Of a DNA stretch of 64,000 nucleotides, positions 46,317 through 58,431 are shown piece after piece. The notes beneath the pieces were generated by a model. The model worked only from the letters and a program-made list of their open reading frames with translations, had not been told where the DNA came from and did not search any database. The translations under genes and the position numbers were made by a program. Origin of the DNA: an uncultured Candidatus Binatia bacterium (GTDB lineage: Bacteria; Desulfobacterota; Binatia; UBA9968; JAJDTQ01); NCBI GenBank assembly GCA_965242525.1, contig OZ251459.1, forward strand, positions 2,624,001-2,688,000, given 5' to 3'. The stretch's first letter is position 1. Every line of letters starts with the position of its first letter.

Positions 46317-47024
46317 TCAGGGCTCCACCGCTGGCCACTTTTCCACCACCATGGCCGGGAAGCCTTCCCGTGACAGGCGGGCGGCGTATTCCCTGGCCTC
46401 GGAATGATCGTCGAAGGTCCCGAGCCGGACCCGGTGGTAGCCCGCGTGGGGCTCGATGACCACCGGCCGGTCGTAGCGGCTCTCGAGTCGCGCTTTCAAC
46501 TCACGGGCCTTGTCCGGGTCCGCGAACGCCCCCAACTGCAAGGTGTAGTCGAGCCGGTCGGGGATGGCCGTGAGTTCCCGGCCGCCGGTGTCCAGCACCT
46601 CCACCCGCACCGGCGCCGTTCCCGGCCCGATCATGTCCACCGCCTGGGCCGCGGCATAGGAAAGGTCGATCACCCGCCCCTTGACGAACGGCCCGCGGTC
46701 GTTGACCAGCACGGTCACCGACTTGCCGTTGGCCAGGTTCGTGACCCGGACGCTCGACCCCAGCGGCAGGGTCTGGTGCGCCGCGGTCATCCCGTACTGG
46801 TCATAGACGGCGCCGCTGGTGGTCTTCTTCCCGTGGAAGCCGGGACCGTACCAGGATGCGATCCCCCGTTGCGAAAGCTCCACGGACGGCTCCCCGACGC
46901 CGGGCGAAGGGGCAGGCGCCGGAGGCTCCGGCGCCGAAGGCGCGCAGCCCGAAAGCAGGAAGAGGACGACCGCGGCGCAAGGCAAGGAGCCTGCGCCCCG
47001 CGGCCAGGGACGTGCAGAAACCAT
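46317..47024 (-). CDS. rlpA: RlpA-family lytic transglycosylase lipoprotein with SPOR domain
   Basis: LSGC lipobox, [26 protein letters not shown]-terminal SPOR. Confidence 0.92.
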
Positions 47025-47170
47025 CGCCCCCTGATTATAGCGCAACGCCGCCCGCATGGAAGCGGTACGCCCGCCGGCGCTTACGGTGTGGGGGGAATTA
47101 TGGTACTTTTCTCACAGGTCCGCGGACGAGAACCGCGGGATCCAGTCCCGTTCGAGGAGAAGGCGGCGTC

Positions 47171-47941: not shown

Positions 47942-48499
47942 ATCGTCACGATCCTGGGCATAGACCCCGGAACCGTCAAGACCGGTTGGGGCGTGGTCCG
48001 GTCGGACGGCAGCCGCCTGGAGCACGTGGCCCACGGCACGGTCCGGGCGTCTCCCGGCCAGTCCCAGGACCGGCGCCTCCACCGGATACACACGGAGTTG
48101 GCCGAAGTCATCCGTCGGCACGAGCCCGCGTGCGTCAGCCTGGAGAAGGTCTTCCTCGCGCGCAACGCCCAGAGCGCCCTGAAGCTCGGCCAGGTGCGCG
48201 GGGTGGCGCTGCTGGCCGCGGCCCAGGGCAGCGTCCCCGTGTCCGAGTACAACTCGGTCCAGGTCAAGAAGGCGCTCACCGGGTACGGGCACGCGGGCAA
48301 GGGCCAGATGCAGCAAATGGTCGCCGCCATCCTCCGCCTTGCCGACGAACCCCAGGAGGACGCGGCCGACGCTCTGGCGGCCGCCATATGCCACGGCCAC
48401 CTGAGCGCTTACGGGAGCAGGGTGCTGGCGGCCGCGGGGCGGACGGGGAGGAGCTCCCGGGGGTTGCGCTGGGGGGCGGATGCCCTGTCCCGCCGGTAG
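47942..48499 (+). CDS. ruvC: Holliday junction resolvase (non-canonical start, probably ATC)
   Basis: ILGIDPG at 47951, LEKVF, KLGQVRG, VKKALTGYG.A.K, DAADALA; no ATG/GTG/TTG upstream in frame. Confidence 0.9.
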   Translation: MVTILGIDPGTVKTGWGVVRSDGSRLEHVAHGTVRASPGQSQDRRLHRIHTELAEVIRRHEPACVSLEKVFLARNAQSALKLGQVRGVALLAAAQGSVPVSEYNSVQVKKALTGYGHAGKGQMQQMVAAILRLADEPQEDAADALAAAICHGHLSAYGSRVLAAAGRTGRSSRGLRWGADALSRR

Positions 48500-48589
48500 T
48501 CCGCGGATGCCGGGAGCCTCCGCGGGCCGCAAGGCCCTGGGGGTTTCCGGTGGAACGCCGGGCGTCCCCCGGTCGTCACGGATCCCGTC

Positions 48590-49174
48590 GTGATCGCCAA
48601 GGTTCGCGGAACCCTGGACCACAAGGAGCCGGGCGAGGTGGTCGTGGACGTCGGCGGCGTCGGCTACCAACTGTCCATCGCGCTGAGCGTGTTCTACCGG
48701 CTGCCGGAGGTGGGCGAGCCCGTGACGCTGCTCGCGTACACCCATGTCCGGGAAGACTCCCTCCAGTTGTTCGGCTTCTTCGACCCCGCGGAGAAGCAGG
48801 TCTTCGTGCTCCTGACCGGGGTGTCGGGCATCGGTCCCCGGCTGGCCCTGAACATCCTTTCGGGCATGGCGGCCGACGAGTTGCTGGGGGCCCTCAAGGA
48901 CGGCGACGTGGCCCGGCTGGTGTCCATCCCCGGGGTGGGCAAGCGCCTGGCGGATCGCATGATCGTGGAGTTGCGTGATAGGATAACGACGCTTCCGGAA
49001 GCCGCGCCGGACCCGGCCGCGGACCCGGGCGTCAGGGCCGACGCCCTGTCGGCGCTGTCGAACCTGGGGTATCGCCGCGCCGATGCGGAGGGGGTCGTGC
49101 GGCAGGTGCTGCGCAAGGGAGCGTCCGACCTGGAAACCGTGCTCAAGGAAGCCCTCCGCCTGCTCAGCCGGTAG
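48590..49174 (+). CDS. ruvA: Holliday junction branch migration protein
   Basis: VDVGGVGY, HVRED...LFGF, VSGIGP, IPGVGK, AL..LGY. Confidence 0.96.
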   Translation: MIAKVRGTLDHKEPGEVVVDVGGVGYQLSIALSVFYRLPEVGEPVTLLAYTHVREDSLQLFGFFDPAEKQVFVLLTGVSGIGPRLALNILSGMAADELLGALKDGDVARLVSIPGVGKRLADRMIVELRDRITTLPEAAPDPAADPGVRADALSALSNLGYRRADAEGVVRQVLRKGASDLETVLKEALRLLSR

Positions 49175-49207
49175 CGGACCGGCGGGCTGCGCAGCGGACC
49201 TCCGTTC

Positions 49208-50245
49208 ATGGAAAGCAGGATCATCTCTCCCGCGGGCGCCGAAGAGGACGTCGTTTACGACAACAGCCTCCGGCCTCGACGGTTCAGCGAGTACGTCGGA
49301 CAGGACAAGGTCAAGGCGAACCTGGGGGTGGCCATCACCGCGGCCAAACGGCGCGGGGACGTCCTGGACCACCTGCTCTTCCACGGGCCTCCCGGCCTGG
49401 GCAAGACCTCGCTGGCGCACCTCATCTCCAGGGAGATGGAGGTGGACATCCGGCCCACCTCGGGTCCGGTGGTGGAGCGGCCCGGGGACCTCGCCGCGTT
49501 GCTCACCAACCTCGACGCGGGGGACATCCTGTTCATCGACGAGATCCACCGCCTCAACCACGTGGTGGAGGAAGTGCTGTACCCCGCCATGGAGGACTTC
49601 CAGGTGGACGTCATGATCGGCCAGGGACCAGGGGCCAAGTCCATCAAGCTGGAGCTCAAGCGCTTCACCCTGATCGGCGCCACCACCCGTTCGGGGTTGT
49701 TGACCCCGGCCTTGCGCAACCGTTTCGGCGCGGTGTTCCGCCTGGACTTCTACGAGCCCGCGGTGCTGGCCGCGCTGCTCGCCCGGTCCGCGTCTCTGCT
49801 GGGGGTGGACGGCGACGAAGAGGGTTTCCTGGAGATCGCGCGCCGGTCCCGGGGCACCCCGCGCATCGCCAACCGGCTGTTGCGGCGGGTCCGGGACTAC
49901 GCGGAAGTCCATGCCGAGGGAAGGATCACCCGGCCGGTGGCGTGCCATGCCCTGGAGATGCTGGAGGTGGACGAGCAGGGCTGCGACAAGATGGACACCC
50001 TGATCCTGGCCACCATCATCGACAAGTTCGACGGCGGCCCCGTGGGGCTGGACACCCTCGCCGCGGCCATCGGCGAGGAAAGGGGCACCGTAGAGGACGC
50101 GTACGAGCCGTACCTGATCCAGGCGGGCTTCCTGGAACGGCGGCCCCAGGGCCGGGTGGCCACGCCGGTGGCCTACCGGCACCTGGGAAGGTCCCAGTCC
50201 GAGTCGCGCATGGACCGGGAGAAACGGCAGAAGCGGCTGTTGTGA
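49208..50245 (+). CDS. ruvB: Holliday junction helicase
   Basis: [45 protein letters not shown]. Confidence 0.97.
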
Positions 50246-50320
50246 GCGCGGCGGTCCCTTTGCGCTTTGCCGGCGCAAGCGATAGCATGTCCTTTGGGAG
50301 CAAGCAGTCGGGTCATTCCC

Positions 50321-52552
50321 ATGAGCGCGGTCAAGGCTGACGAAAAGTTGGCGGAGACGCTCCGTTCCGACGAACGGAAGCGGCGCAGGCGCGAAGGGTG
50401 GGTGATTTTCGCCGCCACCCTGGTGATACTGCTGTTCGCCTACTCCGAGGTGTTCCTGCCGGGCCTGCCCGCGGACTACGGCTTCTTCGGCAACGCCGCG
50501 GTCTTCCTGCTGTTCAACCTCAACATCCTCCTGCTGGTGCTGGTGGTCTTCCTCGTGGCCCGGAACCTGCTGAAGCTGGTCCTGGACCGGCGGCGGCGGA
50601 TCCTGGGGTCCCGTATCCAGATCCGGCTCGTGCTGGCCTTCGTCTGCATCGCGCTGGCGCCCACCGTGACGCTGTTCGTGCTGGCCGAGAGCTTCGTGAC
50701 GCGGGCGGTGGACAAGTGGTTCGACTCGCAGATCGTCAACGCCCTCAGGAACTCCCTCGACATCACCGAGACCTACTACGAGAACTCGGCCGGCAACGCC
50801 CTTTTCTTCGCCCGGCAGATCAGCGGGCGCGTCGGCGGCGCGGAGCTACTGGACCCCGGCAAGCTCGACGAGTTGCAGCGCCTCGTCGAGGACAAGCAGA
50901 AGGAGTACGGCCTGGGCACTGTGGAGATCTACCGGCCGGACGGGGCCGCGGTGGTGAAGGCGTTCAACGACCAGGTGCCCACCGGGGTTACGGTGAGCCC
51001 CCAGGCGGACTTCCTCAAACGCGCGCTCCGGGGCCTGGAGGCCACCCGCGTCCAGCCCTTGGGCGAGGGCGACGTGCTGCGCGGCGCGGTGCCGGTGTAC
51101 GGCGAGGGCCGACGGATCATCGGGGTCGTGGCGGTGGACTACTTCGTGCCCCGGAGCATCAGCAGGAAGGCGCAGCAGGTATCCCGCTCGTACGAGGAGC
51201 ACAAGGATCTGGCGGTGCTCAAGGAACCGGTGAAGCGGACCTACATCACGACCCTGCTGCTCATCACCCTGACGATGATCTTTGCGGCCACCTGGTTCGG
51301 CCTCGCGCTGGCCAAGGGCATCACCGTGCCCATCCGCCAGCTCGCGGAAGGCACCCACGAAGTGGCCCAGGGCAACCTGGATCATCGTATCGAGGCCGGC
51401 GGAGACGACGAGTTCGGCGCGCTGGTGGCCTCCTTCAACCGCATGACCGAGGACCTCGAGCATACCCACTCCGAGTTGGACCGGCGGCGGCGCTACATGG
51501 AGACGCTGCTGGCCAACATCACCGCGGGGGTGGTCTCCGTGGACTGGTCCGGCCGCGTGAACATCGTCAACAAGGCGGCCGAGATGACGCTGGGGATCCG
51601 GGCGCCGGAGGTGCTCCACCGGCCCTACGACGAGGTGTTCCAGACCCCCAGGCTGCAACCCCTGCTCGACGTGGTCCGGGACGTGAGGGGGGGCGCCGGC
51701 GTGGAGCGCGACGTCCGCATCACGGGCAGGGACGGGAGCCTGACCCTCATGGTCGTCGCGGCGAGCCTCCAGGACGACGAAGGCAACACCCTCGGGGTCA
51801 TGGCGTTCATGGAGGACGTGACCGAGATCCAGAAGGTCCAACGCGTGGAGGCTTGGCGCGAGGCGGCTCGCCGCATCGCCCACGAGATCCGGAACCCGCT
51901 GACGCCCATCCAGCTTTCCGCCCAGCGGCTGCGCAAGCGCTACGGGAACCTGCCGGACGGGGACGGGGCGGTCCTCGACAAGTGCACTTCCACCATCATC
52001 CGGCAGGTGGAGGAGTTGAAGACCCTGGTGAACGAGTTCTCCAACTTCGCGCGGCTGCCCACGGCCCGGCTCGTCCCGGACGACCTCAACGCGGTGGTCC
52101 GGGAAGCGCTGGTGCTGTTCCGGGAAGGGCGCCGGGAGGTGGAGTTCGACTTTTCCGAGGACGCGGCGATTCCGCCCGTGGAGCTGGACCGCGACCAGAT
52201 CAAGCGCACCCTGTTCAACCTGCTGGACAACGCGGTGGCCTCCCTCGACGGCGCCGGACGGGTCGAGGTCGCCACGCGGTTCGACGAGGCCTTCGACATG
52301 GTGCGGCTGGAGGTGGCGGACGAGGGCGGGGGCATCGCCCGGGAAGACCGGGGCCGGATCTTCGAACCCTACTACTCGAGCAAGGAGGACGGCACCGGAC
52401 TCGGCCTGTCCATCGTCGGGACCATCGTGGCCGACCACCGAGGATACATCCGCGTGCGCGAGAACCAGCCCCGGGGCACGCGCTTCATCATCGAGCTTCC
52501 CGCGGCAACGCCCGGGGCCGCCGTGGAGGCGAGGGCCAGCAAGGCGTCGTGA
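50321..52552 (+). CDS. ntrY: NtrY-like sensor histidine kinase (TM-HAMP-PAS-HisKA-HATPase)
   Basis: AWREAARRIAHEIRNPLTPIQLSAQRL H-box, NLLDNA, D.G.G, GTGLGL; HAMP DEFGALVASFNRM. Confidence 0.9.
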   Translation: MSAVKADEKLAETLRSDERKRRRREGWVIFAATLVILLFAYSEVFLPGLPADYGFFGNAAVFLLFNLNILLLVLVVFLVARNLLKLVLDRRRRILGSRIQIRLVLAFVCIALAPTVTLFVLAESFVTRAVDKWFDSQIVNALRNSLDITETYYENSAGNALFFARQISGRVGGAELLDPGKLDELQRLVEDKQKEYGLGTVEIYRPDGAAVVKAFNDQVPTGVTVSPQADFLKRALRGLEATRVQPLGEGDVLRGAVPVYGEGRRIIGVVAVDYFVPRSISRKAQQVSRSYEEHKDLAVLKEPVKRTYITTLLLITLTMIFAATWFGLALAKGITVPIRQLAEGTHEVAQGNLDHRIEAGGDDEFGALVASFNRMTEDLEHTHSELDRRRRYMETLLANITAGVVSVDWSGRVNIVNKAAEMTLGIRAPEVLHRPYDEVFQTPRLQPLLDVVRDVRGGAGVERDVRITGRDGSLTLMVVAASLQDDEGNTLGVMAFMEDVTEIQKVQRVEAWREAARRIAHEIRNPLTPIQLSAQRLRKRYGNLPDGDGAVLDKCTSTIIRQVEELKTLVNEFSNFARLPTARLVPDDLNAVVREALVLFREGRREVEFDFSEDAAIPPVELDRDQIKRTLFNLLDNAVASLDGAGRVEVATRFDEAFDMVRLEVADEGGGIAREDRGRIFEPYYSSKEDGTGLGLSIVGTIVADHRGYIRVRENQPRGTRFIIELPAATPGAAVEARASKAS

Positions 52553-52587
52553 CCGGCGCCGGACGATAAGAACCACGGGGGGACGCC

Positions 52588-53931
52588 ATGCAGTCGGAGC
52601 AGAAAACGGTGCTGGTGGTGGACGACGAGGACGGCATCCGCGAGACCGTGCGCGAGATCCTGGCCGACGAGGGTTACCGCGTGGTCGCCGCTCCCGATGC
52701 GAGGGAGGTCCCGGACTTGGTGGCCGCAGAGGCCCCGGACGTGATCCTCCTGGACGTGTGGATGCCGGAGCTGGACGGCATCACGCTCCTCAGGCGCATC
52801 CGGCGGGAGCGTCCGGAGGCCCGGGTCATCATGATTTCCGGTCACGGGAGCATCCACACCGCGGTGGCCGCAACCCGGCTGGGAGCTTTCGACTTCATCG
52901 AGAAACCGTTTTCCCTGGACGGGTTGCTGGCCGCGGTCGAGCGGGCTTGCGGCGACCCCAGGCGGCGCGAGGACCCCGCGGCGGTGGAGGACCTGCAGGC
53001 TCGTCGGCTCCGGGCGGCGGGGCCGTCCGGCCCGGGGGAGGGCGGCCGCGGCGCGCCCCAGAAGACCATCGGGAAGAGCGTGGTGGCGTGCGGCCTGGGG
53101 CTGCATTCCGGCGTCAGCACGGGCGTCATCCTGCATCCGTTGCCGGAGGACAGCGGCATCCAGTTCGGCGGCATCTCCACGGACGCCACCGTGCCGGCGC
53201 ACCTGGACTGCGTGCGCTCCACCGAGTTCGCCACCTCGCTGCAACGGGGCGGGGTGGTGGTAGGCACCGTGGAGCACCTGCTGGCCGCCCTCCACGCCTA
53301 TGGCATCACCAACCTGCTCATCAAGATGTACGGCGAGATCCCCATCATGGACGGTTCCGCCATCGAGTTCTGCCGGTTGATCGAGGAGGCCGGGGTGGAG
53401 GAGCAGCGCGGGGAATGCCCGGAGATCGTCATCGACCGGACCTTTCGCGTGCGCGGGGACGGCCCGGAAGAGATCGTCGTCGAACCCGCGGACCGCTTCA
53501 CCGTCCACTACGAGTTGCAGTACCCGAGCCCGGTGGGGACCCAGGAACACACCTACGTCCACTACGGGGCGGACTCGTTCCGCGACGAGATCGCCCCCGC
53601 CCGGACCTTCGGTTTCCTGCGGGACTTCGGGAAGCTCGAGGGCATGGGCCTGATCAAGGGGGGCCGGCTGGGCAACTGCATCCTCGTGGACGACGAGAAG
53701 GTGGTCAACACTTCGCTCCGGTTCGAGGACGAGTTCGCGCGTCACAAGATCCTGGACATCGTGGGGGACTTCTCGCTCATCGGCCGCCCCGTGCGCGGCC
53801 GCGTGACCGCCCGGATGACCGGCCACGCGGACAACATCGCGCTCTTGCGGCAGGTGGCCGAGGCCTTCGGTTCCCCGGAACCCCGTTCCGCTTCGGCGGC
53901 TCGTCCGTCCGCGGATACGCTGTCCCCTTGA
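52588..53931 (+). CDS. lpxC: Receiver domain fused to UDP-3-O-acyl-GlcNAc deacetylase
   Basis: REC: VLVVDDE, LLDVWMP, MISGHG, FIEKPF; LpxC: QKTI..GLGLHSG, TVEHLLAAL, EIPIMDGSA, EIAPARTFGF, RHKILDIVGD, GH..N. Confidence 0.92.
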   Translation: MQSEQKTVLVVDDEDGIRETVREILADEGYRVVAAPDAREVPDLVAAEAPDVILLDVWMPELDGITLLRRIRRERPEARVIMISGHGSIHTAVAATRLGAFDFIEKPFSLDGLLAAVERACGDPRRREDPAAVEDLQARRLRAAGPSGPGEGGRGAPQKTIGKSVVACGLGLHSGVSTGVILHPLPEDSGIQFGGISTDATVPAHLDCVRSTEFATSLQRGGVVVGTVEHLLAALHAYGITNLLIKMYGEIPIMDGSAIEFCRLIEEAGVEEQRGECPEIVIDRTFRVRGDGPEEIVVEPADRFTVHYELQYPSPVGTQEHTYVHYGADSFRDEIAPARTFGFLRDFGKLEGMGLIKGGRLGNCILVDDEKVVNTSLRFEDEFARHKILDIVGDFSLIGRPVRGRVTARMTGHADNIALLRQVAEAFGSPEPRSASAARPSADTLSP

Positions 53932-53948: not shown

Positions 53949-54347
53949 CTATTCGAACCCGAGCAGGCGCGCGTAGGTTTGCGGCAGGGGGATGAGCTTG
54001 CGGTCGCGGCCGAGGCAGGCGTGTTTGGTCCAGCCCGTTGCGATGGCGGCGCGGTCCGCTTCCCGACCGATCCGGTAGTGGAACTTCAGCGCCACGCGGT
54101 TCAGCGATTCGACCGTGGTCTCGATCCGCAGCAGGTCGTCGTAGCGGGCCGGCCTGCGGTAACGGCATTGCGCCTCGGTGACCGGGAAGAAGACGCCGTC
54201 TTCCTCGGCTCGCCGGTAGGGTATGCCGGCTTCGCGCATGAGCTCGGTCCTGCCGACCTCGAACCAGCGAAGGTAGTGGGCGTAGTAGGCCACTCCCATC
54301 TGGTCCGTGTCGCCGTAGATGACGCGGTAGGCGGTGACGTTCTTCAC
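53949..54347 (-). CDS. YbgC/FadM-family acyl-CoA thioesterase
   Basis: RVIYGDTDQMGVAYYAHYLRWFEVGRTE, PARYDD; start uncertain. Confidence 0.88.
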   Translation of the reverse strand: MKNVTAYRVIYGDTDQMGVAYYAHYLRWFEVGRTELMREAGIPYRRAEEDGVFFPVTEAQCRYRRPARYDDLLRIETTVESLNRVALKFHYRIGREADRAAIATGWTKHACLGRDRKLIPLPQTYARLLGFE

Positions 54348-54384
54348 GTGCGGAGGAGGCTCTCCCCGCGGGTCCCGGCGGCGT

Positions 54385-55308
54385 TCAGTGGTCCGCTTTC
54401 CCGCCCCGCGGGCCGGGTTGGTTGAAGTCCCAGCGGTCACGGCTGGCCACCCGGACTTCCATCGAGCCGTCGCCCCGGAGGACATGGAAGTTGACCGGGT
54501 CTCCGGCTTGCTTCTTCCAGAGCTCCCGGTAGAGCTGGGGCCGGGTCTGCACCTCCCGGTCCTCGACCGTGAGGATGATGTCCCCCTGCCTGAGGCCGGC
54601 CTCTTCCGCGGGTCCCGAGGGCGTGACCCCGGTCACCACCACGTGGCCTTCCACCCCCTGGGGATGGAAGCCGAGCCAGGGTCGCGGCGGCCGGCTGCGG
54701 ACCCGCCCGAACCGTTTCAGTTCGTCCGCGTCCCGGAGGTAGTACTCCACCGGGATGGCCAGTGTGAACTTGGCGATCTCGTTCAGGTTCAGGGACACCA
54801 CGCCCAGGAGACGGCCCCGGGAGTCGGCCAGCGTGCCGCCGCCGAAGCCCGGGTTGAACGCGCTCAGCCGGATGGAGCGTTCGAGCAGGTACTCCCACTG
54901 GGCGTCGTAGCCTTCCAGGGAGGTGACGCAGCCATCGCTGACCCGTCGAGCCTGCTGGCCCCCGCTGGCGACCATGAACGCGGGTTGGCCGACGTTGACG
55001 GACTCCGCCGGCCGCAGGAACGGCAGGCCCCCGGCGTCGATCCTGACCAGGGCGAGGCCGGTGTCGAAGTCCTGCGCGGCCAGCCGGCCCGGGCGCCGTT
55101 TCCCGTCCGAGAGCGTCACGGTGATGGACTCGGCCCCGTTGACCACGTAGTTGACGGTCAGGATGACGCCGGTGGGATCGACGATGGTCCCGGAGCCCAT
55201 CCTCTCGGAGCCCAGGTTCCGCGCGGAAGGATGGCTCGACGGCACCCTCACGTCGAGGTCCACCGTGGCCGGCAGCACCGAATGTACCAGACCCAACCGT
55301 GCGTTCAC
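54385..55308 (-). CDS. HtrA-like trypsin-fold plus PDZ protein, catalytic triad degenerate
   Basis: GSG.IVD..G.ILT, PWLG, GPAEEAGLRQGD PDZ; His, Asp and Ser positions substituted. Confidence 0.8.
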   Translation of the reverse strand: MNARLGLVHSVLPATVDLDVRVPSSHPSARNLGSERMGSGTIVDPTGVILTVNYVVNGAESITVTLSDGKRRPGRLAAQDFDTGLALVRIDAGGLPFLRPAESVNVGQPAFMVASGGQQARRVSDGCVTSLEGYDAQWEYLLERSIRLSAFNPGFGGGTLADSRGRLLGVVSLNLNEIAKFTLAIPVEYYLRDADELKRFGRVRSRPPRPWLGFHPQGVEGHVVVTGVTPSGPAEEAGLRQGDIILTVEDREVQTRPQLYRELWKKQAGDPVNFHVLRGDGSMEVRVASRDRWDFNQPGPRGGKADH

Positions 55309-55372
55309 GCGCAACCTCCCACTTTCCCGCAGGGAGAGGGAATTCAAGCCGGAATCGCCCGGAGTTCCACGA

Positions 55373-56442: not shown

Positions 56443-57474
56443 GTGATGCGGCGGGTTATCGTTGACGGGATGGGCGGTGACCACGGCCCGGGTGTCGTCG
56501 TAGCGGGGGCGCTGCAAGCTGCGAAGGAATACGGGGTGGAGGTCACCCTGGTGAGCGAATCGGGCGCGGTGGAATCCGAGTTGTCGCGCCATTCGTTCGA
56601 CCCGTCGTCCGTGCGCGTCCTGTCCGCGGCCGCCTCCATCGGCATGCACGACTCGCCGAGCCGTGCGCTGAAGCGCAAGGACTCCTCCATGCGGGTCGCC
56701 TTCGACCGCCTGAAGGCGGGTGAAGGCGACGCGGTGGTGAGCGCCGGGAACTCCGGGGCGATGATGGCCATCGGCATGTTCGTGCTGGGACGGTTGCCCG
56801 GGGTGGACCGGCCCGCCATCCTGACGGTCAGCCCCTCCCTTTCCGGCGGCACGGTCCTCCTGGACGGGGGGGCCAATACCGACTGCAAGCCGCGGCAGTT
56901 GGCGCAGTTCGCACGGATGGGCGCCATCTACGCGGAGAAGATCCTCGGAGTCCCGCGGCCCCGGGTGGGCATCCTGAGCAACGGCGAGGAGGACGAGAAG
57001 GGCAACGACCTCACGCGGGAGGCGGTCCGCGAGTTGCGGGCCACGGAGTTGAACTTCGCGGGCCACGTGGAGGGCCGGGACATTGCCAACGGCCGAGTTG
57101 ACGTGGTGGTCTGCGACGGCTTCACCGGCAACGTGGCGTTGAAGACCATGGAGGGACTCGGACAGTTCGTCTCCTCGGTCCTGAAGGAGGCGTTCCGCAG
57201 CAGCCTGCTCAGCCGGCTGGGGTTCCTGTTGTGCCGGCGGGCGGTGCGGCGCGCCTACGACCGCCTCGATTATGCGCACTACGGCGGCGCGCCCCTGATC
57301 GGCCTGGACGGCGTCGCCATCGTGGCCCACGGCGGCTCGTCCGCCAAGGCCATCAAGAACGCCGTGCGGGTGGCGGCCGAAGCCGTCTCCCAGGACATCA
57401 ACGGCTACATCGTGAACGCGTTGGAGCGTGCGCCGGAGCCTCGCGAGCGGACGGATGGCTCCGGTCACGCCTGA
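56443..57474 (+). CDS. plsX: Phosphate acyltransferase
   Basis: DGMGGDHGP, SAGNSGA, DRPAI, DGGAN, NGEE..KG, CDGFTGN, HGGS. Confidence 0.96.
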   Translation: MMRRVIVDGMGGDHGPGVVVAGALQAAKEYGVEVTLVSESGAVESELSRHSFDPSSVRVLSAAASIGMHDSPSRALKRKDSSMRVAFDRLKAGEGDAVVSAGNSGAMMAIGMFVLGRLPGVDRPAILTVSPSLSGGTVLLDGGANTDCKPRQLAQFARMGAIYAEKILGVPRPRVGILSNGEEDEKGNDLTREAVRELRATELNFAGHVEGRDIANGRVDVVVCDGFTGNVALKTMEGLGQFVSSVLKEAFRSSLLSRLGFLLCRRAVRRAYDRLDYAHYGGAPLIGLDGVAIVAHGGSSAKAIKNAVRVAAEAVSQDINGYIVNALERAPEPRERTDGSGHA

Positions 57475-57483
57475 GTGGGGCTG

Positions 57484-58431
57484 ATGGCGGACCCGGGACG
57501 TATCGCGTTCGTCTTTCCCGGGCAGGGATCCCAGTACGTGGGCATGGGGAAGGCCCTGTGCGAGGGGTTCCCGGAGGCGAGGGCGGTCTTCGACGAGGCG
57601 GAGGACGCCCTGCGGATGGACCTCCGCAAGGTGTGCTTCGACGGTCCCGAGGCCGACCTGAACCGCACCGCTTGCACCCAACCCGCGATCCTCGCCGTGT
57701 CCGTGGCCGCGCTCCGGGTGCTCGAAGGACGTTGCCGGGCCAGGCCCTCGTGGGCGGCGGGACACAGCCTCGGCGAATACAGCGCCTTGGTGTGCGCGGG
57801 TGCGCTCCGGTTGGCGGACGCGGCGGCGGTGGTCCGGGAGCGGGGGCGGCTGATGCAGGAAGCCGTGCCCGAGGGCGCAGGGGGCATGGCGGCGGTCCTC
57901 GGTTTGGAAGCGTCGGTGGTGCGGGAGGTTTGCGAGCAGGCGGGGGGCGGGGAGGTGGTGGCTCCCGCCAACTTCAACGGCGGCGGGCAGGTGGTGGTTT
58001 CCGGCGCTCGCGAAGCGGTGCGGCGGGCGGCGCAACTGGCCCGGGACCGGGGCGCGCGGAAGGTGGTGGACCTCCCGGTGAGCGCTCCGTTCCACTGCGC
58101 GCTCATGGAGCCCGCGTCGGAGGGGTTGCGGGAGGTGCTGGAGGGAGTCGAGGTGCGGCCCTTCCGGGTGGGCGTCGTCACCAACGTGGAGGCGGCTTCG
58201 AACTCCGACCCGGAGCGTGTCAAACCCCTTCTGGTGGAGCAGGTGGCGGCCCCGGTCCGATGGGAGGAGTCGGTGGAGACCTTGGCCGGGCTGGGCTGCG
58301 AGTGCGCCGTGGAGCTGGGTCCGGGGAGGGTGTTGTCCGGGCTCATCCGGCGCATCGACCGGAGGATGAAGACCCTCCACATGGAACGGCCCGAGGACCT
58401 GGAAGGGGTGCTCGCGGAGTTGGGGGGCTGA
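57484..58431 (+). CDS. fabD: Malonyl-CoA:ACP transacylase
   Basis: FPGQGSQ, TQPAI, GHSLGEY, VSAPFH. Confidence 0.96.
   Translation: MADPGRIAFVFPGQGSQYVGMGKALCEGFPEARAVFDEAEDALRMDLRKVCFDGPEADLNRTACTQPAILAVSVAALRVLEGRCRARPSWAAGHSLGEYSALVCAGALRLADAAAVVRERGRLMQEAVPEGAGGMAAVLGLEASVVREVCEQAGGGEVVAPANFNGGGQVVVSGAREAVRRAAQLARDRGARKVVDLPVSAPFHCALMEPASEGLREVLEGVEVRPFRVGVVTNVEAASNSDPERVKPLLVEQVAAPVRWEESVETLAGLGCECAVELGPGRVLSGLIRRIDRRMKTLHMERPEDLEGVLAELGG

Follow-up and report, generated by a model that had tools for sequence, protein, structure and literature searches.

A receiver-LpxC fusion encoded behind an NtrY-like kinase in Candidatus Binatia: a candidate phosphorylation switch on lipid A synthesis

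Introduction

LpxC is the committed enzyme of lipid A synthesis and the main control point of lipopolysaccharide (LPS) synthesis, and it has long been an antibiotic target. This report concerns a 64,000-nucleotide (nt) stretch of DNA (the window) from an uncultured Candidatus Binatia bacterium (contig OZ251459.1 of assembly GCA_965242525.1, positions 2,624,001 to 2,688,000), in which the gene of an NtrY-like sensor histidine kinase is followed by a single open reading frame (ORF) that joins an NtrX-like receiver (REC) to a complete LpxC. The pair had been picked out by an earlier reading of the same DNA (the original prediction), which regarded it as a candidate phospho-switch on lipid A synthesis. 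Coordinates are those of the window, with the strand in brackets.

A receiver and a complete LpxC in one reading frame

The fusion gene occupies positions 52588-53931 (+) and encodes 447 amino acids (aa) in one ORF; it is the sole lpxC of the genome, and its junction is spanned by contigs from three studies. The N-terminal part is an NtrX-like receiver (52609-52941, +; residues 8-118), which scores 111.4 bits with the Pfam family Response_reg (PF00072; cutoff 30.2) and contains the codon of the putative phospho-acceptor D56 at 52753-52755 (+). It is followed by a low-complexity linker of ~35 aa (52951-53058, +; residues ~122-157), which varies in length and sequence among relatives, and by the LpxC deacetylase domain (53059-53859, +; residues 158-424), which matches profile positions 1-267 of 268 of PF03331 with 275.6 bits (cutoff 27). 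The protein also passes the NCBIfam model TIGR00325 lpxC (242 bits, cutoff 187.25), and it ends in a C-terminal low-complexity tail (53869-53928, +; residues ~428-447). Both Pfam and NCBIfam therefore bear out the domain order originally read from the ORF, in which a receiver, a ~35-aa linker and a complete LpxC share one 447-aa frame.

Each of the motifs named at that time is found in the protein. The receiver has the acidic pair D12/D13, D56 in LLDVWMP, S84 in MISGHG and K106 in EKPF, and the LpxC domain has E229/H230 in TVEH, H386/K387/D390 in HKILD and H413 in TGH; T340 and D394 are also present. The zinc-binding and catalytic residues align with those of Pseudomonas aeruginosa LpxC (40% identity), and their E. 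coli counterparts are E78, H79, T191, H238, K239, D242, D246 and H265.

An AlphaFold2 monomer model of the fusion protein, built on an alignment of 46 REC-LpxC sequences (A1), has a mean predicted local distance difference test score (pLDDT) of 86.9 and a predicted template modelling score (pTM) of 0.84. Disorder in the model is limited to the linker (pLDDT <50 at residues 126-138 and 143-152), which is gap-rich and poorly conserved in A1, and to the last 12 residues (pLDDT <50 at 436-447), which belong to a tail that in A1 is confined to the closest relatives (for example P0010, P0020 and P0037; 76-88% identity). In Foldseek searches the modelled LpxC fold matches solved LpxC structures (6mae, 1yh8 and others) with E ~1e-31, a template modelling score (to target) of 0.82-0.95, a root-mean-square deviation of 1.5-2.4 Å and 34-41% identity, and no solved chain was found that spans both domains.

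The receiver was originally described as NtrX-like, and three comparisons agree with this. The best NCBIfam regulator match of the fusion is NtrX (NF051870), although with 127.6 bits against a cutoff of 600 and over residues 7-131 only; the best receiver matches in the PDB are 4d6x and 5m7n, the latter deposited as nitrogen assimilation regulatory protein; and the receiver shares 46-50% identity with the receiver at the ntrX position of Rhizobium ntrB-ntrC-ntrY-ntrX loci, compared with 34-36% for that at the ntrC position. Pfam finds neither a helix-turn-helix (HTH) nor an AAA+ domain in the window's protein. Judged by its sequence, the fusion protein is NtrX-derived and not itself an NtrX.

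The NtrY-like kinase and its pairing with the fusion

The kinase gene lies immediately upstream at 50321-52552 (+) and encodes 743 aa from its ATG, or 761 aa if translation were to begin at an upstream TTG at 50267. Three N-terminal transmembrane (TM) segments (50396-50701, +; residues ~26-127, with Kyte-Doolittle runs at 26-51, 54-90 and 94-127) precede a periplasmic PDC/Cache-type sensor (50702-51238, +; residues ~128-306), which was identified with AlphaFold2 and Foldseek. A fourth TM segment located by a hydrophobicity scan (51239-51316, +; residues ~307-332) runs into the HAMP domain (330-380). The kinase core (51854-52507, +) consists of HisKA at residues 512-579 (45.1 bits), with the histidine in AHEIRNPL, and HATPase_c at 623-729 (83.1 bits). 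HAMP, PAS, HisKA and HATPase_c all exceed their Pfam cutoffs, and two further matches fall below theirs, namely NtrY_N (PF19312; 19.8 bits, cutoff 23.2) and a weak sCache_3_2 match (24.8 bits). The periplasmic domain of ~185 aa was modelled from residues 118-322 with an alignment of 25 orthologues (A2) at a mean pLDDT of 84.3, and among solved structures it comes closest to the extracytoplasmic domains of CitA, DcuS and WalK/YycG (Foldseek E 7e-8 to 1e-6). According to this model, the sensor is a single PDC/Cache-type domain.

The kinase aligns over residues ~58-743 with the protein at the ntrY position of the Rhizobium loci (28-30% identity) and over the kinase core only with that at the ntrB position. 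This almost end-to-end alignment with Rhizobium NtrY upholds the original assignment, and the name NtrY-like is used here because of the layout and the near full-length similarity, not because of formal Pfam membership. Two loci of Geobacteraceae have a kinase of this type (42-43% identity; 38% in the periplasmic domain) followed by an ordinary REC-AAA+-HTH regulator.

A spacer of 35 nt (52553-52587, +) separates the kinase stop codon (TGA, 52550-52552) from the fusion ATG at 52588, exactly the gap that had been reported, and a Shine-Dalgarno-like GGGGGGA (52577-52583, +) lies 4 nt upstream of this ATG. The scan found no plus-strand terminator-like site between the two genes, which makes their co-transcription likely. 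The same scan gave a weak promoter-like site inside ruvB and a minus-strand terminator-like site over the ribosome-binding site, neither of which is informative.

The original prediction had suggested that synteny with ntrY be looked for in relatives. An orthologous kinase (42-75% identity) immediately precedes the fusion in 21 of 33 loci with short forms of the fusion like that of the window and in 4 of 12 loci with the long forms described below. These counts refer to loci with enough upstream DNA, one of which (L033) was counted as short by hand, and as the loci were chosen by similarity and are kin, the counts are descriptive and not independent tests. In one short-form subclade (L018:4662-5969 and L020:4628-5941) adenylosuccinate synthetase stands upstream in place of the kinase; as this gene is not a kinase, these two fusions are orphan regulators.

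The fusion as sole lpxC and as a widespread protein

The window genome (4.23 Mb in 7 contigs, 98.96% complete) has one Pfam LpxC match, which is the fusion gene; a second lpxC, which the original prediction had raised as a point to check, was searched for with Pfam and rejected on this single match. The genes of LpxD, LpxB and LpxK form a group at ~1.05-1.06 Mb on the contig that also carries the fusion. Since the lipid A pathway is present and there is only one LpxC match, the fusion must supply the LpxC activity, and on this basis it is predicted to be an active UDP-3-O-acyl-GlcNAc deacetylase.

An assembly chimera or a frameshift that joins a receiver gene to lpxC would also produce a single frame of this kind, and it had been named as a way in which the reading could fail. 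No point in support of it was found. Contigs of three studies span the segment 52300-53400, from the end of the kinase gene across receiver and linker as far as LpxC, unbroken and free of indels and joints. One of these contigs is identical and may be the source of this DNA, and the other two differ by 13 and 16 substitutions. Moreover, both Pfam domains are present in all of the 120 best matches (taken from 7679 scored) in a collection of 5.8 billion proteins, down to 61% identity, and 47 of 200 other genomes sampled evenly from the phylum have a fused-type match, including 5 of 5 genomes of the same class, so that the fusion is anything but absent from close relatives. Together, the junction contigs, the best matches and the sampled genomes rule out the artefact, which has a practically negligible probability. 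Chance can likewise be discounted, given the domain scores and an architecture conserved across hundreds of independent sequences. DNA nearly identical to 52300-53400 occurs in runs labelled sponge metagenome, where sequence X6 differs by 13 of 1101 bases, which hints at the habitat.

The combination of Response_reg and LpxC, which had been put forward for an architecture search, is thus widespread, and public annotation describes these proteins just as "UDP-3-O-acyl-N-acetylglucosamine deacetylase". Among the 200 genomes, a match was classed as fused-type when its best E was 1.5e-79 or lower, and the other 153 genomes gave a best E of 7e-58 or weaker, from a canonical LpxC of ~300 aa at 35-42% identity or, in a few cases, from receiver-only matches. 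Twenty-six of the 47 fused-type matches span receiver and LpxC, and 21 cover the LpxC part only, in open frames of 450-966 aa; ten of these 21 were inspected and all have a receiver in the same ORF (6 short and 4 long forms). When the LpxC domain alone was searched against 1.84 billion cluster representatives, the top 50 comprised 34 proteins with receiver and LpxC, 8 with an N-terminal extension and no detectable receiver (probably truncated calls), 4 LpxC fragments and 4 full-length stand-alone LpxCs.

The record titles of fused loci name Candidatus Binatia, Binataceae, metagenome-assembled genomes (MAGs) of 'Deltaproteobacteria', Nitrospinota/Nitrospinaceae and a Nitrospirae MAG, and further titles include Syntrophorhabdus, Syntrophaceae, a Bdellovibrionales MAG and others. 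In one Syntrophaceae MAG (L021:1802-3088) the fusion ORF contains two stop codons, so that either the gene is broken or the assembly is in error. Two of the sampled genomes, G034 and G199, have both LpxC types and are natural cases in which to see what a fused copy adds.

Long forms, intermediates and the origin of the fusion

Nitrospinota, as well as several genomes from the phylum of the window, have the fusion in long forms of 665-795 aa that contain REC, a sigma-54-type AAA+ domain, an AAA lid and LpxC (L023, L024, L026-L030, L032, L034, L048 and L087-L090; for example L029:5986-7983 and L087:3151-5331). Their AAA+ domain is weak, with 30-128 bits compared with 181-249 bits in ordinary REC-AAA+-HTH regulators of the same set of loci. 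Their alignment shows Walker A largely intact, another residue in place of the Walker B glutamate, and no GAFTGA loop; this loop is also missing from the regulators at the NtrX position in Rhizobium that were included in the same alignment. A Fis-type HTH (HTH_8) exceeds the Pfam cutoff between the lid and LpxC in four of seven long forms (P0131, P0136, P0142 and P0125), the seven being L087 and L089, which have no match, and five database proteins; another set of four long forms gave no HTH_8 match at E 0.001 or lower. Intermediates also exist. P0145 (491 aa) is REC-HTH_8-LpxC and has no AAA+ (HTH_8 25.7 bits), and P0132 (505 aa), also lacking AAA+, has an HTH_8 match just under the cutoff (20.9 bits). 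In the LpxC tree both have a long form as their sister, which points to internal deletions of recent date.

This tree was computed with FastTree from 157 LpxC domains, leaving out 21 partial-domain rows, and was midpoint-rooted with Shimodaira-Hasegawa-like support only. It contains one clade of 73 rows (support 100) that comprises 41 short forms, 22 long forms, 6 N-truncated proteins and 4 apparently stand-alone ones, and the other 84 stand-alone LpxCs lie outside it. Short and long forms are interleaved within the clade, which requires at least 8-9 state changes, and P0144/P0145 and P0147/P0149 are examples of close short/long pairs. The receiver tree (84 rows, 118 columns) lacks resolution in its deeper branches, and its supported local pairs match those of the LpxC tree, which indicates that receiver and LpxC have travelled together. 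The simplest reading of these sequences is a single fusion of a whole NtrX-like regulator with LpxC, followed by repeated internal deletions, so that the window protein would be a shortened form. The original prediction held that the output domain here is the enzyme itself. The enzyme is indeed attached, but a simple swap of output domains does not describe its origin, as the long relatives show REC-AAA+-HTH fused to LpxC with the middle lost later. The documented series therefore runs from REC-AAA+-HTH-LpxC through REC-HTH-LpxC to REC-LpxC.

The long forms may be bifunctional regulator-enzymes, to go by their domain content, and this invites a different view of the LpxC domain, namely that it serves also or mainly as a sensor, whose binding of substrate or product would report the precursor level to the receiver and the kinase and, in the long forms, to the HTH in the manner of a trigger enzyme. 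The HTH_8 matches in four of seven long forms, the REC-HTH_8-LpxC protein P0145 and a mostly kept Walker A next to a missing Walker B glutamate and GAFTGA would suit such a role. The window protein, however, has neither HTH nor AAA+, and invariant catalytic residues in the only LpxC match of the genome mark it as an enzyme first, which leaves the sensor explanation highly improbable.

Conservation of the switch and catalytic residues

Both halves of the fused proteins largely keep their functional residues. Among the 46 diverse REC-LpxC proteins of A1, which share 36-96% identity with the query, D12, D13, S84 and K106 never vary, and conservation of D56 is at least 90%. In a census of 63 fused proteins (41 short and 22 long), the acceptor aspartate is kept in 60, K106 in 62 and serine or threonine at position 84 in all 63. 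All 63 have E229, H230, H386, K387, D390, D394 and H413, and position 340 is threonine in 61 and serine in 2. The receiver and LpxC residues listed originally are therefore conserved among relatives, and their retention in the receiver across such diverse fused proteins points to selection on phosphorylation chemistry. P0147 and P0149 form a small sister pair in which the acceptor aspartate is replaced and the LpxC catalytic residues are intact.

These counts bear on the possibility that the receiver survives as a passive relic, serves for structure or dimerisation, or acts as a phosphate sink for the kinase, with LpxC constitutively active and regulation residing elsewhere. The fusion began as a whole regulator whose parts are being lost, which makes further decay plausible, a kinase gene is not adjacent to many of the fused genes, and the small clade of P0147 and P0149 has no acceptor aspartate. 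On the other hand, the five signature residues of the receiver are kept in nearly all 63 proteins, which are as little as ~36-45% identical overall, and the receiver is retained in every full-length fused protein examined despite the repeated loss of AAA+ and HTH. A domain that stays while its neighbours are lost repeatedly is hardly a relic, and we regard this explanation as distinctly improbable.

The genomic neighbourhood

The genes ruvC, ruvA and ruvB (47993-50245, +) lie directly upstream of the kinase, and L002, L003, L006-L009, L011 and L093 show the same succession of ruvCAB, kinase and fusion. Downstream, a 4HBT-type thioesterase gene (53949-54485, -) converges on the fusion gene across a gap of 17 nt and is followed by the gene of an HtrA-like protease with Trypsin_2 and PDZ domains (54385-55347, -); the two ORFs overlap as called, and both genes are kept in the two closest Binatia loci (L002 and L003). 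Further downstream are plsX (56443-57474; FA_synthesis, 373 bits) and fabD (57475-58431; Acyl_transf_1, 139 bits). The pair was originally placed just upstream of a plsX-fab cluster, and plsX and fabD are indeed downstream, but they are not adjacent, since the thioesterase, the HtrA-like protease, yceD and an L32-like ORF lie between. The nearest records, two Candidatus Binatia MAGs (78% identical), share the order ruvCAB, kinase, fusion, thioesterase, protease, yceD, plsX, fabD. Another envelope-related gene near the locus encodes an RlpA-like protein with a DPBB_1 lytic transglycosylase fold and a SPOR domain (46317-47057, -). The window genome has three strong sigma-54 activator domains, all away from the kinase-fusion locus.

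A phosphorylation switch on LpxC and its limits

We consider it fairly probable that the two genes form a module in which an NtrY-like kinase is paired with a response regulator whose output is LpxC, and in which phosphorylation alters that output. From the architecture and the conserved residues we infer phosphotransfer from the kinase to D56, an effect on catalysis, the direction of this effect and a signal. In such a scheme, the kinase would sense a periplasmic or envelope-related cue, autophosphorylate on the histidine of AHEIRNPL and hand the phosphate to D56 of the receiver. The receiver switch (S84, K106 and the alpha4-beta5-alpha5 face) would then alter the packing of the receiver on the LpxC domain, or the dimer state, and the deacetylase output would rise or fall, altering lipid A flux. 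Occlusion and release of the catalytic domain, dimerisation or a change in stability could each bring this about. As to direction, we lean by analogy towards phosphorylation acting as a brake on LpxC, because NtrYX lowers lpxC expression in alphaproteobacteria.

The model of the monomer gives a hint of a defined REC-LpxC arrangement, since its pTM of 0.84 is reached while LpxC accounts for ~275 of 447 residues (~62%), which would suit a receiver placed against LpxC and bears indirectly on CheB-like packing of the receiver over the catalytic site. A complex prediction with REC (1-124) and LpxC (153-432) as separate chains, based on A1 and run without controls, scored 0.00 and speaks neither for nor against docking.

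Several observations weigh against a phosphorylation-controlled LpxC. The linker is long, disordered and variable, which disfavours a fixed interdomain interface. The acceptor aspartate is missing in P0147 (asparagine), P0149 (serine) and P0164 (a truncated protein), and the pairing with the kinase is not universal, as no orthologous kinase adjoins the fusion in 12 of the 33 short-form loci and in 8 of the 12 with long forms. Two genomes, G034 (contigs C11 and C33) and G199 (C52 and C232), carry a canonical LpxC besides the fused type, so the housekeeping role may in some cases not fall to the fused form. The fused receivers are not recovered as one clade in the receiver tree, with its 118 columns and weak support, and all trees are FastTree trees with midpoint rooting only. 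Finally, phosphotransfer and its effect on activity are both predicted from the sequence. On the whole, the original interpretation is partly supported: the computational checks that it proposed all turned out favourably, and phosphorylation control and an envelope signal are themselves predictions.

The disordered segments bear on one more explanation, according to which the receiver sets the amount of LpxC rather than its catalysis. A degron would become accessible or be masked on phosphorylation, or a protease (FtsH or Lon, for example) would be brought in, and this phospho-dependent control of stability would take the place of the LapB/FtsH route of E. coli. Excerpts from a review of lipid A regulation describe how proteolysis controls LpxC in E. 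coli and may do so, through Lon, in alphaproteobacteria (PMC12444477). The window genome encodes one FtsH, the disordered linker and tail could serve as protease entry sites, and LapB of the E. coli type was not detected in this genome (the PF18073 match is RadA, and NF008757 reaches 24.8 bits at most, its cutoff being 363). These tests for LapB carry little weight, however, as PF18073 matches Gram-positive controls and NF008757 passes in E. coli alone among the controls. Furthermore, the C-terminal tail is kept in the closest relatives only, and no adaptor or protease is linked to the locus except the HtrA-like protease gene on the opposite strand. Control of LpxC stability is accordingly judged unlikely. 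The candidate LapB found with PF18073 was rejected as RadA/Sms (L095, G000:C1:3573798-3576881, ORF 244-1704, -); PF18073, named 'Zn_ribbon_LapB', is a poor stand-alone marker of LapB.

Returning to the phosphorylation switch, a broader proposal would place it in an evolutionary frame. NtrYX-type systems may at root control lipid A flux, and in Binatia, Nitrospinota and other mostly uncultured lineages the regulator may have become welded to LpxC, so that the phosphoryl signal would switch the enzyme directly. We offer this wider view tentatively, as a possibility held with somewhat less conviction than the two-gene module itself.

Relation to known systems

No description of a REC-LpxC fusion was found in full-text literature searches on LpxC, whose results were judged in part by title and abstract, and an earlier listing in response-regulator censuses or InterPro is possible. 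The words 'fusion', 'fused' and 'receiver' are absent from the available text of the 2025 Journal of Biological Chemistry review of lipid A regulation (PMC12444477). As far as seen, the architecture is visible in databases and has apparently been neither characterised nor discussed. Excerpts from the same review state that LpxC regulators are diverse and poorly conserved, that little is known of them outside Proteobacteria and that further strategies are probable (PMC12444477); the receiver-LpxC protein, which is conserved over several phyla and linked to a kinase, is a testable candidate for such a strategy. None of the LpxC controls covered in these excerpts, namely FtsH/LapB/YejM, MurA activation, Lon and Ght, acts via phosphorylation (PMC12444477), and the mechanism proposed here, if true, would be the first post-translational, phosphorylation-based control of LpxC. 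In that case, the ~700-aa REC-AAA+-HTH-LpxC ancestors would be bifunctional trigger enzymes that combine DNA binding with synthesis of a lipid A precursor.

Stand-alone LpxCs, such as those of E. coli, P. aeruginosa and A. aeolicus, share the fold and the identical catalytic and zinc residues. They differ from the fusion in that they have no N-terminal receiver and linker, and the fusion belongs to a separate, almost wholly fused clade. E. coli LpxC carries a C-terminal FtsH degron, according to the review excerpts (PMC12444477); most members of the fused clade stop shortly past the last LpxC helix in A1.

A close likeness is to NtrY/NtrX of alphaproteobacteria, known as PlrSR in Bordetella. 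The kinase has the same layout, with a TM bundle, a periplasmic domain, HAMP, PAS, HisKA and HATPase, and the AAA+ domain without GAFTGA and the Fis-type HTH of NtrX are also found in the long relatives of the fusion. Unlike NtrX, the window protein has neither AAA+ nor HTH and has LpxC covalently attached, and regulation here would be post-translational and specific to LpxC, as opposed to a regulon of dozens of genes. NtrYX is also functionally connected with lpxC expression and with the envelope (PMC12444477; PMC7240162). Excerpts from the review report that NtrYX represses lpxC transcription in Rhodobacter sphaeroides and Caulobacter crescentus (PMC12444477), and the accessible part of a further study reports that in a delta-ntrYX strain of R. 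sphaeroides lpxC mRNA was up 8.8-fold and LPS was raised (PMC7240162). By analogy, the fusion looks like a physical version of this NtrYX-lpxC link, and it adds independent gene-fusion evidence for a connection known genetically in Rhodobacter and Caulobacter. If the proposed mechanism is true, the fusion would serve as a 'Rosetta stone' for the rise in lpxC expression and LPS that alphaproteobacteria show when NtrYX is lost.

A two-component system dedicated to lpxC has likewise been described in a 'delta-proteobacterial' lineage. In the sections available of a published study, lpxC is the sole mapped target of the NtrC-type regulator DVU2934 of Desulfovibrio vulgaris (DVU2931-DVU2934), and in Syntrophobacter fumaroxidans lpxC adjoins the orthologous regulator operon (PMC3333781). 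The likeness to DVU2931-DVU2934 is by description alone, and that system differs from the fusion in exerting transcriptional control through separate proteins.

Response regulators with enzymatic output, such as CheB, PleD/WspR and RpfG, also place the receiver N-terminal to the enzyme and join the two by a flexible linker. Phosphorylation frees an occluded active site in CheB and drives dimerisation in PleD. The output of those regulators is a signalling enzyme, whereas in the fusion it is biosynthetic and catalyses the committed step of an essential envelope pathway, which adds a biosynthetic enzyme to the output domains of response regulators; the literature searches made here brought up no description of an output domain of this kind.

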